A stretch of DNA of 64,000 bases from a virus (IMGVR_UViG_3300036834_000189:32001-96000), one strand, 5' to 3'; numbered from the stretch's first letter, positions 3,080 through 56,107 are shown. A program made the numbers and translations. Notes: a model not told the origin generated them from the sequence alone.

Positions 3080-3132
3080 TTGACCTTATCGGCAATCGGT
3101 ACTAAATAAATGGTGCGGGCAATCGAGCCCGC
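3080..3132 (+). promoter_or_regulatory. sigma70-like promoter plus conserved leader hairpin (copy 1)
   Basis: TTGACC-17bp-TAAATA, then GCGGGC-AATCGA-GCCCGC. Confidence 0.75.
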
Positions 3133-3156
3133 CGAACCCAAGGAGGAGGTGGCTAA

Positions 3157-4338
3157 ATGCCATCGCGTGCCCGTCAGATCATGGACGAATGGAACGCACT
3201 CGTCCCGCAAGCTTCGCATCTCCCCGGCGTCCGCCGGTGGACCGGGATCCCGTCCACCATCGCGCAGGGGGAAGAACGCCTCGCGTGGCTGCGCGCGCGG
3301 CTCAACGGCGGCGCAGCGACACCGGCTCCCGCACCGCTGCGGATGGCGGATCGCGATACGCCGCAGGCGGCGCGCTTGCGCGCGGTCTACGAGGAATGGA
3401 ATTCGCTGGTCCCGCAAGCCGCGGGTCTGTCACGGGTCCGCGTGTGGACGCAAGTCCCGGCCGACATCGCGCGCGGCGAGGCGCGGCTCAACTGGCTCAA
3501 GACCCAGCTACGCTACCGCTCCTCGACATTGGGGCTGGACTTCGGGGTCGAGATGGAGTCGCTCTTGCCGAGCGGCACGTATCGCGAAAACCTGCGCGAC
3601 CGCCTGCGCGAAGCCGGGCTGGCTGCCGAAGTCGAGATGCTGAACCACACGACCAGAACATGGTGGAAACTGACGACCGATGGGTCGCTCGGCGATTACG
3701 TGCGCGGGGTCGAAACCGTCAGCCCGATCCTGAACGGCGACGACGGCTTTGCCGCGCTGCGCACCACCTGCCGGACCTTGACCGCGATGCGCGCCACGGT
3801 CACAAAGATATGCGGGCTCCACGTCCACGTCGGGGTGCGTGATCGCGATGTCGAGTTCTTCAAGCGGCTGATCAAGCTCTACGCCACCTTCGAGCCGGTG
3901 ATCGACCGGTTCATGGCAAAGTCGCGGCGCGCCAACAACAGCCGCTGGGCGCGCTCGATCCGTCAGTTTCACGACAGCCAGACGCTCGCCGCCGCGACCA
4001 CGCTCGATGAGCTTGGTCAGGTTTACGGGCGCGACACGCATCACCGCTCGCATCACCGCCAGTACAAGTACCGCAAGCTCAATCTGGACAATGTGTGGGA
4101 GCGCGGCACCGTCGAGTTCCGCCAACATCAAGGATCGGTCGACGCGTTAAAAGTCGAGATGTGGACCCGGCTGTGCCTGAAGATGGTGATCGCCGCGGCG
4201 AAGCCCGATCTCGTACTCGGCCCCGTCACCCTCGACGGTTTTATGACGACGATCGACGCCAGCGATGCCGAGCGCGTCTATTACGCGGCGCGCACTGCCG
4301 CATTCGCCATGCGCGCGCTCGACCAGACCAACCGATAG
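3157..4338 (+). CDS. putative amidoligase (COOH-NH2 ligase, Amidoligase_2 family) with duplicated N-terminal domain
   Basis: Motifs FGVEME, WKLTTDGSL, ETVSPIL, CGLHVHVG and TVEFRQHQGS. Confidence 0.85.
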   Translation: MPSRARQIMDEWNALVPQASHLPGVRRWTGIPSTIAQGEERLAWLRARLNGGAATPAPAPLRMADRDTPQAARLRAVYEEWNSLVPQAAGLSRVRVWTQVPADIARGEARLNWLKTQLRYRSSTLGLDFGVEMESLLPSGTYRENLRDRLREAGLAAEVEMLNHTTRTWWKLTTDGSLGDYVRGVETVSPILNGDDGFAALRTTCRTLTAMRATVTKICGLHVHVGVRDRDVEFFKRLIKLYATFEPVIDRFMAKSRRANNSRWARSIRQFHDSQTLAAATTLDELGQVYGRDTHHRSHHRQYKYRKLNLDNVWERGTVEFRQHQGSVDALKVEMWTRLCLKMVIAAAKPDLVLGPVTLDGFMTTIDASDAERVYYAARTAAFAMRALDQTNR

Positions 4339-4347
4339 GAGGCAATT

Positions 4348-4620
4348 ATGCGTACCCGTGACGGGATCGAACTCAGCGGCAACAGCCCCGAGGAAATCGT
4401 CAGCGATCTTCGCCGACGCTCGTTCGAGCAGGCGGGCGACAACCGCGCCTTCATGCACGAGACGCAGGGCCGGGTGACCTTGCAGATCGGCAAGCGGATT
4501 CGCTGCGACACGGCGGAGCACTTTGTCGACGATCTGATCAAAGTCGGGCTCTTGCTCGACGAGCCGAGCAAGATTGTCGAGCCGGCGAAGAAAGCGGACT
4601 GCGTCGAAGAAAGTAGCTGA
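4348..4620 (+). CDS. hypothetical protein
   Basis: AGGAGG RBS, directly downstream of the amidoligase. Confidence 0.6.
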   Translation: MRTRDGIELSGNSPEEIVSDLRRRSFEQAGDNRAFMHETQGRVTLQIGKRIRCDTAEHFVDDLIKVGLLLDEPSKIVEPAKKADCVEESS

Positions 4621-4807
4621 TCGTGATGATACCTACTCCCTCTACGCTAGAAGTCATGTTGTTCGGGTTTCTCTGCCAAAAGTATGTGCAAAGGGCCGAC
4701 GATCGACAGAAGGCTATGGGATTACTGTATACCGAAGCCGAGACACATGACCTAGCCCGAGAGTTAAGTCTGTGGTTCCAGATGCTGACAGAGAAGGGGC
4801 TGTCCCC

Positions 4808-4868
4808 TTGATTTTGGGAGCTAATTCAGTATCTTTGACTACTAAGCGGGGAGGGCAATCAAGCCCTC
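4808..4868 (+). promoter_or_regulatory. promoter plus conserved leader hairpin (copy 2)
   Basis: TTGATT-16bp-TATCTT, then GAGGGC-AATCAA-GCCCTC. Confidence 0.65.
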
Positions 4869-4889
4869 GCCTGGAAAGGAACGAAAGCC

Positions 4890-5537
4890 ATGCACACAAT
4901 CTCCGCGATCGAGTATCTGCGCGACACCCAAGGCCGCTTCGTCGATCAGCCGCCGCTCCCCAAGGACCGCAAGGTCCGCAGAGCGGTCATGCCGGCGCCG
5001 ATGCGGCGCAAGGGCGGCACCTTGCTCTACGCGGCTTATGGGAGCAACCTGAACATCGCCGCGATGGCGCAGCGCTGCCCGCGCGCCGAACCGCTCTACC
5101 CGCTGATCCTCGACAATGCGGCGCTGGTGTTCCGCGGCGTCGCCGACATGGTCCATCGCAAGGGTTCGCGGTGCCCGCTCGGCATTTGGTCGATCACCCG
5201 CGAATGCGAGAAGGCGCTCGACCGCTACGAGGGTGTCAAAGGCCAAAATGGGATGTATGTGCGCCGCTGGTTCACATTGCAAATGCACAACGGATTGAAC
5301 CGCCCGGTGCTGTTCTACCAGATGCGCGAGCGCGGGGTATGCCCGCCCTCGGTGCATTATCTACAGGTCATCGAGCAAGGCTATCGCGATTTTGGTCTCG
5401 ATCCCGCTGTCCTCGAAGTGGCAGTCGAGGAGGCTTGGAAGGAGCGGCAAGTCACGCCCCGAATCGCCACGCGCTACTATCAAAAAGGTCGTCCCGAGTT
5501 TGGCCATACCTGGGATCTCGATCTGGAAGGGGGCTGA
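4890..5537 (+). CDS. gamma-glutamylcyclotransferase (GGCT/AIG2-like) family protein
   Basis: LYAAYGSNLN and LDRYEG motifs, plus a PS.HY..I..GY C-terminal motif. Confidence 0.85.
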   Translation: MHTISAIEYLRDTQGRFVDQPPLPKDRKVRRAVMPAPMRRKGGTLLYAAYGSNLNIAAMAQRCPRAEPLYPLILDNAALVFRGVADMVHRKGSRCPLGIWSITRECEKALDRYEGVKGQNGMYVRRWFTLQMHNGLNRPVLFYQMRERGVCPPSVHYLQVIEQGYRDFGLDPAVLEVAVEEAWKERQVTPRIATRYYQKGRPEFGHTWDLDLEGG

Positions 5538-54532: not shown

Positions 54533-54586
54533 GATGGCTCGATTGCCATCGCTCCTTAGATATGGGGTGATCCGATAAAAGGTCAA
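54533..54586 (-). promoter_or_regulatory. promoter plus conserved leader hairpin (copy 5)
   Basis: TTGACC..CATATCT, then GATGGC-AATCGA-GCCATC. Confidence 0.7.
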
Positions 54587-54606
54587 CCCCTCGAATAGTG
54601 CTTTTC

Positions 54607-54909
54607 TTAGCGCAGGTATGCGGGGCCGTGCGGTCCCATATACTTCAGCCCGTTGTGCTCGTCGTAGATGTTGCCGCGGGCATGCTTCGCCGGGGCCTTG
54701 AAGCCGGCCGGCTTGAGCACAGCGCCGCTCGTCTTGTCGACAAAGCAGTGTGCCGAGTTGTTGAAGACGATCCGCGCGTAGCGCTTGCCATCGTCGACCC
54801 GCCAGTCGTTTGGGCAGGACAGACTCGGAAGGTGCAGTGCGTAGTAGTCGTGGACGATCTTTTTGCATCCGTCGAGGAAGGATGCGAACGCGGTATCGTA
54901 ATCGGTCAT
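54607..54909 (-). CDS. hypothetical phage protein
   Basis: GKRYARI...SAHCFVDK..G.VLKPA.FKAPAKHARGNI, a pattern I associate with small phage proteins. Confidence 0.7.
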   Translation of the reverse strand: MTDYDTAFASFLDGCKKIVHDYYALHLPSLSCPNDWRVDDGKRYARIVFNNSAHCFVDKTSGAVLKPAGFKAPAKHARGNIYDEHNGLKYMGPHGPAYLR

Positions 54910-54922
54910 GGTATCTGCTCCT

Positions 54923-54977
54923 GAAGGCTCGATTGCCCTCGCCATATATATATAGGGGCTATACGCTAAAAGATCAA
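54923..54977 (-). promoter_or_regulatory. promoter plus conserved leader hairpin (copy 6)
   Basis: TTGATC-17bp-TATATA, then GAGGGC-AATCGA-GCCTTC. Confidence 0.75.
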
Positions 54978-55849
54978 GTCCATAATCTCGTATTTATGGC
55001 GCGCCGGCAGCACGCCGGTCAACGCGCAGATCTGGGCGTAGGTGAACCCCGTGGGTGGGTGTCCGCCGTTGTCGAGCCAGACGCGCAGATCCAATAATGC
55101 GGCATCGGCGGTGGCGCGGTCCCGCTCGACCAGGGCGTCGAGGTAGCGTTGCCAGCAAGCGGTCGGGTCCATCTCACGTCACCTTTGCGAGCACAGTGTT
55201 GACGACTGGATCGACCAACGCCCGAAACGCCGTTTCGTGATACGCTTTGGTTGCGTAGACAATCTCGCCGTGGAGCAGTTCGACATACCCCAGATCGACG
55301 GCGTTCTTAGAAACATGGTTATCGCCGTCGACAAATCGACCGCTGAAGTAAATCCGGCTTTTACCGCCTTTCTCCCATGCCTTGGCGCTCAGAAGCCAGG
55401 AGCCATAGCCTGATGTAGTCAGCCGGTCGCCGGTCAGCGCCGCGGCGATTTGTTCCAACTTTGTCCGGGTGGCGGATTTGGTCATTACCGGTTCTCCCAA
55501 CGACCAGTGATCTTTAACGATGCAGTGTGATCAGGTTTAGGGGAAGGTGGGGCTCGTTAGAGCCCCTATGCTGTGCGGCTGATAGTTGACCAAGGTGTTT
55601 CGGGCCGAGCCTTGAACTTAAAGGGATACGGTTTTGTGTTACCGCGCCATTCTGCAGTTTGGTCGGCTGTAATCAGCAGCCACGCACCGCGAGAATCCGG
55701 CGCTGCTTCGCTGATGTCTGTGATCGTCAGGTAAAGCGCGGATTCTGGCAGATTTCTCTCGCGACAGGAGCGGCGCATCCACAATCGGACCTCGCGTGCC
55801 GGCGGCATAATAACATCGCCGATCTGCAATTCTGCTGCGCGTGTTTTCA

Positions 55850-56038
55850 TTACCGGGGAGCCATCAGGTTCCACGAGATCTTCATCCCCGGGCGCTGCGG
55901 GTAGCCCACCGCGAGCGCGCCGTTGCTGGTCGAGACGAGCATGGTCTTTCCGGTGCTGGAAAGCTTGCCCGCGTGGGTCAGGTCGATCGTCAGGACCAGC
56001 TTGTCGCCGGTCACTTTGAGGTCGTAGCCATTGGTCAT
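55850..56038 (-). CDS. small hypothetical protein
   Basis: MTNGYDLKVTGDKLVLTIDL...SSTGKTMLVSTSNG; AAGGAG RBS. Confidence 0.65.
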   Translation of the reverse strand: MTNGYDLKVTGDKLVLTIDLTHAGKLSSTGKTMLVSTSNGALAVGYPQRPGMKISWNLMAPR

Positions 56039-56055
56039 TTCGGTTCTCCTTGCGC

Positions 56056-56107
56056 GAGGGCTTGATTGCCCTCCCCGCTTATATATGGACTTACACGAAA
56101 AAGTCAA
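56056..56107 (-). promoter_or_regulatory. promoter plus conserved leader hairpin (copy 7)
   Basis: TTGACT-16bp-TATATA, then GAGGGC-AATCAA-GCCCTC. Confidence 0.75.

Follow-up and report, generated by a model that had tools for sequence, protein, structure and literature searches.

What is the short hairpin that follows a set of promoters in the genome of one tailed phage, and is it peculiar to that phage or part of something wider? The window analyzed here is a stretch of 64,000 nucleotides (nt), bases 32001-96000 of the 116,206-bp IMG/VR virus record IMGVR_UViG_3300036834_000189, which is estimated to be 87% complete; seven promoters in it are each followed by a hairpin with the core GGC-AATCRA-GCC (the 12-mer, GGCAATCRAGCC). 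The 12-mer is a widespread phage motif and is not private to this phage, a point that escaped the preliminary description of the locus. We read the element as an RNA-level leader hairpin of a widespread phage family, with a probability of about 0.8, and the questions of how it is recognized and what it does are answered below with less confidence.

The 12-mer has seven exact matches in the window (Table 1), against an expectation of 0.015 (Poisson P ~4e-17), and permitting one mismatch adds no further site there, while shuffled sequences yield 1.15. A covariance model trained on the copies of this phage and 65 copies from other phages, and run with filters off, recovers the same seven sites at 23.7-28.6 bits, the next-best match in the window (15.1 bits) lying inside a coding region. 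All seven copies are at the positions first reported. The rest of the genome holds one further exact copy at 9641-9652 and two one-mismatch copies at 12849 and 6582, all on the minus strand and all behind the same type of promoter, which brings the promoter-linked copies in the 116-kb genome to ten in all; two other one-mismatch matches lie inside coding sequence and have no promoter. The promoters form a family of their own (TTGAC(T/C)TTTT, 16-18 nt, TATATA), as had been claimed: the pattern TTGAYNTT-N12-17-TATNT occurs at 7 distinct sites in the window versus 0.02 expected, six of these sites carry the hairpin, and the seventh hairpin promoter, at 3080, has the -10 hexamer TAAATA. Every copy is sense to its downstream open reading frame (ORF), with a Shine-Dalgarno 2-14 nt after the stem, in keeping with the described placement ahead of the ribosome-binding site. 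The unit with copy 4854 is atypical in that 18 nt, not 9-11 nt, separate its -10 from GGC.

The wider distribution of the 12-mer was examined by scanning a collection of viral contigs. A first scan (TTGAY, 28-42 nt, 12-mer) returned at least 121 matches, and about a quarter of those listed show a full promoter, the 12-mer, a ribosome site and an ATG, on contigs unrelated to this phage or to one another. The reversed motif, scanned alike, gave 91 loci; intergenic contexts with a promoter were found for 24 of the 121 matches listed for the real motif versus 3 of the 91 reversed ones (P = 2e-4), and contexts with a ribosome site in addition for 13 versus 0 (P = 5e-4). A stricter pattern (TTGAC-N16-19-TANNNT-N6-15-GGCAATCRAGCC), for which chance would supply a handful of matches, retrieved at least 119 loci in 104 unique contexts and 68 independent clusters; among the matches listed, locus GC content runs from 0.28 to 0.67 and the loop is AATCAA in 98 of the 104 unique contexts. 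The reverse complement of the 12-mer behind the same promoter pattern occurs at 6 loci in the whole collection (binomial P ~1e-28), and since this control is the same duplex turned round, the element is strongly strand-specific relative to transcription. A chance origin is ruled out by the shuffles and by the reversed-motif and reverse-complement scans.

The same promoter-plus-12-mer pattern was found at 54 loci in 596 Gb of bacterial and archaeal genomes, which is approximately the number expected by chance. Only about 15 of these resemble leaders, and several are short contigs of metagenome-assembled genomes (MAGs) or copies of viral contigs; the leader-like copies fall in bins of Clostridia, Xanthobacteraceae (Alphaproteobacteria), Sedimentisphaerales (Planctomycetota), Acidobacteriota, and Patescibacteria. 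The breadth of carriers is shown by the GC range alone, binning-based host assignment being weak evidence for it. Use of the motif by a cellular gene was considered and rejected: the one clear housekeeping match, at a typA/bipA-like GTPase, stands alone. The idea that the motif is inherited with the phage lineage was likewise rejected, as no real copy is present in the whole records of the capsid relatives checked (43-77% identity). No near DNA relative of the phage exists among 50,697 GenBank phage records. The capsid protein has at most 48% identity to that of any cultured phage, and no cultured relatives of the other motif-bearing contigs were found.

Evidence that the motif is a paired RNA comes from its edges. 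In motif-aligned contexts, each position of the 12-mer has an information content of ~2 bits, which drops to about zero at the adjoining bases on either side. The two bases that flank the 12-mer form a Watson-Crick or G-U pair in 59% of the independent contexts of the promoter-selected sample, versus 29% in shuffles (z 6.6). A second sample, selected solely on a downstream GGAG-ATG (at least 117 loci), gave 59% versus 32% (z 6.0). The flanking pair is found as GC, CG, AU, UA, and UG, and the covariation score of 75 aligned members (0.186 versus 0.111 ± 0.013) was reached by none of 500 shuffles; compensatory changes therefore keep the pairing at this position, as they do in an RNA hairpin. Stems with at least four extra pairs are in several-fold excess, for example, CCTTAACAGGGC/GCCCTGTTAAGG at locus L277 and TCAACAAGGC/GCCTTGTTGA at locus L339. 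The three inner pairs are invariant in sequence and hence uninformative on pairing, and a scan for compensatory variants of two of them (GNNAATCAANNC) returned mostly noise, the few leader-like variants being one-sided or U-G. Since the loop is invariant as well, apart from a fifth base that is a purine (A in most phages, G in 8 of the 10 copies of this phage), the selected feature is a short hairpin read at both its stem bases and its loop. We infer that the motif acts as RNA and that what it benefits is the expression of messages made by the host polymerase.

Within this phage, the support from the stem is more mixed. RNA folding places the hairpin in the minimum free energy (MFE) structure, in the same register, for 9 of the 10 leaders and leaves the Shine-Dalgarno mostly open, with modest z-scores of -3.0 to +0.3 for the ten leader folds. 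The stems quoted in the preliminary description are correct for copies 3118, 4854, 54536, 54926 (with its G-U pair), and 56059. Its statement that the outer stem covaries survives in part: three stem positions carry one compensatory change each among the ten copies (G-C to U-A, A-U to C-G, and G-C to U-A), and the number of pairs with double changes exceeds all but 1 of 500 shuffles, but this evidence is thin, for three copies are mismatched and overall pairing is no better than in column shuffles (71% versus 70%), with two sense-strand G-U pairs and six unpaired cells. In copies 36594, 51863, and 9641, the internal mismatch is bridged by further outer pairs. The phage 18-mer has a folding energy of -10.6 kcal/mol as RNA and -5.2 as DNA. 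The stem foot follows the -10 hexamer at a distance of 5-9 nt, usually 7-8 nt, which would place it at or beside the expected +1 and make the hairpin 5′-terminal in this phage, as far as starts can be predicted from the promoters.

The placement of the motif in the wider family is constrained on both sides. Among the 68 independent promoter-selected contexts, the distance from the -10 to GGC is 12-14 nt in 43 (63%; P = 1.5e-8), and 5-9 nt ahead of GGC there is a CAT whose A is probably the transcript start, so that promoter-linked copies begin at about +7 of the predicted transcript. In 53 of the 68, a Shine-Dalgarno starts 0-28 nt (median 9) and a start codon 11-40 nt (median 20) after the motif; taken at these medians, the hairpin spans roughly -32 to -21 relative to the AUG. 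In the sample selected on the ribosome site, about 42% of loci (known loci included) reach a promoter score of at least 14 versus 14.5% of control genes at the same loci, and the upstream enrichment holds when only the new loci are counted (Mann-Whitney P = 0.002). A promoter is nonetheless not required: among the loci listed for this sample, an upstream ORF ends a few bases ahead of some copies, and two or three copies have a U-run behind them, in the manner of terminator hairpins. Of five whole records that were examined, three have their single copy at 0.7-2.7 kb from an end of the genome, directed inward.

Several individual loci show how the motif can be arranged. At L275:115-1010(+), three tandem units of promoter, hairpin, and small ORF follow one another ~420 bp apart, the third with the loop variant AATGAA. 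A 3.9-kb MAG contig binned to Alphaproteobacteria (L394) has three promoter-linked copies on both strands, and three viral contigs (L579, L606, and L574) have a longer G-C stem and then a T run, intrinsic-terminator-like, ahead of the ribosome site of the next gene.

The hairpin was compared with the small leader elements that it resembles. No known RNA family claims it: Rfam covariance models at the gathering threshold give only tRNA-Thr in the window, and Rfam 15 gives no match in eight leader-bearing loci at E up to 5. Exact-sequence and keyword searches of the open literature gave no relevant match, and the motif looks like an undescribed control signal on phage mRNAs. With lambda-type nut sites, to which the preliminary description had likened it as one possibility, it shares a small hairpin with a conserved loop and variable stem in an early-operon leader downstream of a host-type promoter. 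The boxB hairpin, however, is a GNRA-like pentaloop on a 5-bp stem beside boxA, co-varies with the N protein of each phage, and occurs twice per genome, whereas the present loop is the hexanucleotide AAUCRA in 10 of 10 copies of this phage and 75 of 75 aligned members, and the same 12-mer recurs in unrelated phages, in up to ten copies and next to a ribosome site. No boxA (GCUCUUUAACAA-like, up to three mismatches) is present on the sense strand of the seven leaders, and no arginine-rich N-termini were noticed in those of the first downstream ORFs that were listed, the comparison being confined to these ORFs. Membership of the boxB/nut family is not supported, given the hexaloop, the lack of boxA, and the common sequence.

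The put RNA of HK022 is alike in that it acts in cis as a nascent RNA close behind early promoters, independently of any phage protein, and in that its partner, RNA polymerase, is highly conserved. It is ~70 nt long with two stem-loops and a narrow distribution, has no evident sequence likeness to the motif, and, unlike put, the motif also occurs away from promoters. The 5′-terminal stem-loop of the ompA type protects against 5′-end-dependent decay, and the predicted stem foot of this phage, 5-9 nt past the -10 and so at or beside the expected +1, would recall the ompA, T4 gene 32, and T7 gene 10 leaders; such stabilizers need no particular sequence, whereas the wider motif family has a stem of 3-4 bp preceded by ~5-9 unpaired 5′ bases. 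The ops element read by RfaH is a 12-nt strand-specific leader element that also forms a small hairpin, but it acts as non-template DNA in proteobacterial host operons, is not tied to a ribosome site, and has another sequence. In T4-type phages, promoter-early stem-loops (PeSLs) are repeated promoter-plus-hairpin modules before small early ORFs scattered in a myovirus genome; they differ in that the stem-loop is a terminator that precedes the promoter, has no conserved loop, and is lineage-specific. ANTAR dual-hexaloop substrates and guanidine-II (mini-ykkC) RNAs are likewise very small leader hairpins defined by loop sequence, but these are paired host elements with other loop consensuses (A1/G4 and ACGR), and neither was matched in the Rfam scans of the window and the eight loci. 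The element is, then, a new and widespread variant within the known class of small cis-acting phage leader hairpins. The earlier view of a leader hairpin marking an early regulon is borne out as regards conservation, strand specificity, and a single sigma-70-like promoter family, and a marker of early or host-polymerase transcription is a reasonable description of it.

The search for a partner was mostly negative. No protein family is common to four or more of six motif-bearing genomes (phmmer E<1e-3), and BLAST clustering of ORFs flanking 103 loci produced only ORFs that run across the conserved promoter-leader; the first ORFs downstream of the motif show no relation to one another, and the motif is not tied to one downstream gene family. 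A pseudoknot between the loop and a downstream UUGAU was discarded because its apparent excess is due to ATGATT start contexts, and complementarity to E. coli 16S, 23S, or 5S rRNA or tRNA-Glu was discarded at no more than 9-10 of 12 pairs with no long run. In the same sense, E. coli 23S rRNA 785-796 (L548:3426-3437), GCCAAUCAAACC, matches the motif at 10 of 12 positions. The corresponding segment, CCAAUC(A/G)AAC, is seen in Corynebacterium, Herpetosiphon (the G variant), Falsiroseomonas, and Phyllobacterium, and the rRNA segment and the phage loop have in common both the core CAAUCRA and the A/G polymorphism. This likeness is a lead, not a finding, a 10/12 match to rRNA having a chance probability of ~0.17.

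The explanation that we favor, tentatively and at somewhat less than even odds, is a mechanism of translation or message stability that works through a host factor. At each site of this phage, a host-type (sigma-70-like) promoter would start the transcript no more than about two bases from the foot of a hairpin of 6-9 bp, with the invariant GGC-AAUCRA-GCC as its cap and the Shine-Dalgarno 2-14 nt further on. The cap would be the widespread, uncatalogued motif itself, 12 nt long, sharply bounded and strand-specific, with three to four G-C-rich pairs and a hexaloop, and its end, a median of 20 nt before the start codon, would fall at the 5′ edge of the region covered by the 30S subunit. The RNA may be read sequence-specifically by conserved host expression machinery, the small ribosomal subunit or an mRNA-decay or processing enzyme being the favored candidates, with the outcome that phage messages from the host RNA polymerase would be favored in expression. 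The stem of this phage is lengthened and flush with the predicted start; it would serve as a 5′-terminal clamp and would shield the message from 5′-end-dependent decay. Phages that differ widely carry the same sequence, and no partner encoded by a phage is apparent; the partner is therefore probably a strongly conserved component of the host. An effect on translation or mRNA fate is favored by the closeness to the start codon and by the promoter-less copies. A bolder form of the proposal, which we consider unlikely, is that GGC-AAUCRA-GCC is a cross-phylum "phage message tag" that would dock onto universally conserved bacterial expression machinery and privilege early messages. Such a tag might mimic the universally conserved 23S rRNA loop CCAAUC(A/G)AAC or, alternatively, engage a ribosomal or polymerase surface, and could have been gained independently or by exchange in phages of many hosts and avoided by the hosts themselves.

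A number of observations weigh against the reading set out here. No binding partner was identified for the motif, and host genomes do not use it, which would be odd if it merely improved ribosome binding. The minimal hairpin is weak (-2.8 kcal/mol for the bare 12-mer as RNA), and the variants of the inner pairs are not compensatory, so structure alone is not what is selected. The Shine-Dalgarno spacing is loose (0-28 nt) and the promoter spacing tighter, which leans toward a transcription-linked role. Most other phages have 5-9 unpaired bases before the hairpin, and 5′-end protection can therefore not be its general role. Finally, no copy is present in the nearest relatives by capsid protein (77% identity, GC 47%), so that the motif is scattered over phage lineages rather than inherited with them.

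The data are divided between translation or mRNA fate and modification of the polymerase; we rank translation or stability first and antitermination second. Under antitermination, a rather unlikely reading in our view, the nascent hairpin would bind RNA polymerase, alone or with a conserved Nus-type factor, and make it resistant to terminators or Rho. Polymerase modification is favored by the tight promoter spacing, with 12-14 nt from -10 to GGC in 63% of independent contexts, and by the end-proximal position in three of the five whole records, where the single copy points inward as a first early promoter would. Strong promoters are, moreover, ~3-fold enriched upstream of motif-bearing ribosome sites among the loci listed, RNA polymerase is conserved enough to explain an identical sequence in phages of GC 28-67%, and Rho silences foreign DNA, which would account for an element found only in phages. 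Such a role sits poorly with the ribosome-site-selected copies, at least half of which, among the loci listed, have no recognizable promoter nearby, some being intercistronic; the hairpin is also far smaller than put RNA, has no accompanying boxA, and stands ahead of many operons that open with a single small ORF. If the reader were instead a phage-encoded RNA-binding protein, the ribosome site would hold its operator, and early genes would be shut off or activated later in infection by analogy with T4 RegA. The element is indeed phage-specific and near-absent from hosts, adjoins the Shine-Dalgarno, is multi-copy in some phages (10 copies here, 3 in L275, and 3 promoter-linked in L394), and has the invariant stem bases and loop of a protein site. 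We nevertheless think this improbable: no protein family is common to the motif-bearing genomes at the threshold given above, flank clustering of the 103 loci gave artefactual families only, the first downstream ORFs are unrelated, and an identical 12-mer in such divergent phages demands an equally conserved protein.

Two further explanations place the signal in DNA. By analogy with ops, the 12 nt could be a bubble-sized hairpin in the non-template strand, read by a NusG-family factor, sigma, or core polymerase and causing pausing or affecting escape at about +17. The exact 12-nt length with its sharp edges, the strand specificity, the fixed place at about +7 to +18 of promoter-linked copies, and the initial GGC, as in ops, are what such an element would show. 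The bare 12-mer is barely stable as a DNA hairpin (-0.8 kcal/mol), however, copies occur away from promoters and two or three have U-tracts after them like terminators, no -10-like A/T pattern is offered to sigma, and RfaH-type factors are not universal, all of which leaves this a poor candidate. A double-stranded operator, in which a repressor on an imperfect palindrome over +1 to +20 would block the promoter, is in our judgment highly improbable. Its attraction is that the site in this phage overlaps the start point with dyad symmetry and that the inner half-sites GGC/GCC are invariant; against it stand the at least 20-fold preference for one orientation with respect to the promoter, the non-palindromic center AATCRA, the mirrored changes of the flanking pair through four Watson-Crick types, the G-U pairs, the copies without promoters, and the lack of a common DNA-binding protein.

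The sequence CGAGCC is common to the hairpin and to the repeat of four dual-repeat arrays in the window, which are read as TIGR guide arrays (PMC12045711; bioRxiv 10.64898/2026.09.09.750476). A link between the two was considered and rejected. Among 59 parsed units, no spacer pair matches the genome outside the arrays, no spacer shares a 7-mer with the motif, and none forms a pair at the hairpin promoters; spacer matches near the hairpin promoters number 10 versus 5.9 expected, no array spacer targets the hairpins, and arrays and motif co-occur in only two loci. In the TIGR layout, arrays close to a tas gene hold two short variable spacers that either have box C/D-like repeats on each side or lie within a stem; the hairpin does not have this layout and, unlike a tigRNA, is a conserved apical part with variable sequence outside. 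The shared CGAGCC looks coincidental, as the preliminary description had allowed. One of the two repeats, (A/G)AGCGAGCCA at the edge, recurs with a different second repeat, (A)ATCAACATCA, in an array of more than 30 units at L088:3200-4650(+) on the unrelated contig IMGVR_UViG_3300036833_000235, which also has one GGCAATCAAGCC leader at L088:1334.

The landmark genes of the window are those of a tailed myovirus (Table 1), with a phage GC content of ~62%. The genes downstream of the hairpins are amidoligase-like, gamma-glutamyl-cyclotransferase-like, or encode small proteins of unknown function, and five of the seven units occupy small minus-strand islands that contrast with the packaging, head, and tail modules on the plus strand; this fits "early or auxiliary" transcription by the host polymerase. 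One promoter of the family has no hairpin: at 6463(+), TTGATCTTTT is followed after 17 nt by TATATA and after a further ~16 nt by the ATG of ORF 6508-7377, and this promoter region (6463-6510(+)) and the minus-strand array at 6139-6402 are arranged back to back. Within the spacer of the 3080 promoter, at 3091-3100(+), stands GGCAATCGGT, a partial second 5′ half of the motif 27 nt upstream of the real copy. The portal ORF encodes 1,597 aa, with more than 1,100 further residues fused to the PHROG 146 part.

Table 1. Coordinates of the promoter-hairpin units, their genes, and other features of the window (positions counted from the first base of the window)
Feature	Position	Strand	Description
Unit 1	3080-3159	+	-35 TTGACC 3080-3085, 17 nt, -10 TAAATA 3103-3108, hairpin, Shine-Dalgarno AAGGAGGAGG, ATG 3157
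Hairpin 1	3115-3132	+	GCGGGC-AATCGA-GCCCGC; 12-mer match 3118; 6 perfect pairs; 26.3 bits
Gene of unit 1	3157-4338	+	amidoligase-like ORF
Unit 2	4808-4892	+	-35 TTGATT 4808-4813, 16 nt, -10 TATCTT 4830-4835, hairpin, ATG 4890
Hairpin 2	4851-4868	+	GAGGGC-AATCAA-GCCCTC; 12-mer match 4854; extra outer pairs; MFE -18.9 kcal/mol, z -2.4; 28.6 bits
Gene of unit 2	4890-5537	+	gamma-glutamyl-cyclotransferase-like ORF
Unit 3	36568-36644	-	-35 TTGACT 36644-36639, 16 nt, -10 TATATA 36622-36617, hairpin, GGAG, ATG 36570
Hairpin 3	36589-36610	-	GGTAGGGC-AATCGA-GCCCCACC; 12-mer match 36594; 4 pairs, A.C mismatch, 3 pairs; 26.1 bits
Gene of unit 3	36337-36570	-	77-aa ORF between terminase and portal genes of the opposite strand
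Unit 4	51840-51913	-	-35 TTGACT 51913-51908, 16 nt, -10 TATATA 51891-51886, hairpin, GAGGAG, ATG 51842
Hairpin 4	51858-51879	-	GCGAAGGC-AATCGA-GCCCTCGC; 12-mer match 51863; 3 pairs, A.C mismatch, 4 pairs; 24.6 bits
Gene of unit 4	51648-51842	-	64-aa ORF
Unit 5	54510-54586	-	-35 TTGACC 54586-54581, 18 nt, -10 TATCTA 54562-54557, hairpin, AGGAG, ATG 54512
Hairpin 5	54533-54550	-	GATGGC-AATCGA-GCCATC; 12-mer match 54536; fourth pair U-A for G-C, a compensatory change; 26.8 bits
Gene of unit 5	53763-54512	-	249-aa ORF
Unit 6	54907-54977	-	-35 TTGATC 54977-54972, 17-19 nt, -10 within (TA)5 run, hairpin, AGGAG, ATG 54909
Hairpin 6	54923-54940	-	GAGGGC-AATCGA-GCCTTC; 12-mer match 54926; G-U pair on sense strand only; 23.7 bits
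Gene of unit 6	54607-54909	-	100-aa ORF, PHROG 5014, function unknown
Unit 7	56036-56107	-	-35 TTGACT 56107-56102, 16 nt, -10 TATATA 56085-56080, hairpin, AAGGAG, ATG 56038
Hairpin 7	56056-56073	-	GAGGGC-AATCAA-GCCCTC; 12-mer match 56059; MFE -17.0 kcal/mol, z -3.0; 28.6 bits
Gene of unit 7	55850-56038	-	62-aa ORF
Dual-repeat arrays, 36-37 nt	6139-6402, 17637-17682, 46322-46512, 48953-49720	-, +, -, +	form GAGCGAGCCA-N8-GAG(n3-6)ACCA-N8
tRNA-Thr(UGU) gene	18175-18250	+	lone tRNA gene; ARAGORN; Rfam 62.9 bits
DNA polymerase	19364-21904		landmark gene
Large terminase	32352-33932		landmark gene
Portal	36731-41524	+	long C-terminal extension; PHROG 146 at residues 38-467
Head protease			landmark gene
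Major head protein	47650-48810		landmark gene
Tail sheath	61936-63432		landmark gene

The known leader hairpins (boxB, put, and the 5′ stabilizers) are each confined to a narrow lineage, whereas here an identical run of 12 bases stands in the same place and orientation in phages of GC 28% to 67%. This pattern, together with the chance level of the motif in bacterial genomes, implies that the binding partner is strongly conserved and that the task is one peculiar to phages. The partner, once found, could show how phages in general single out or favor their own early messages. The motif is a portable part of 12 nt, and in uncultured phages it would help to annotate the transcription units of the host polymerase.

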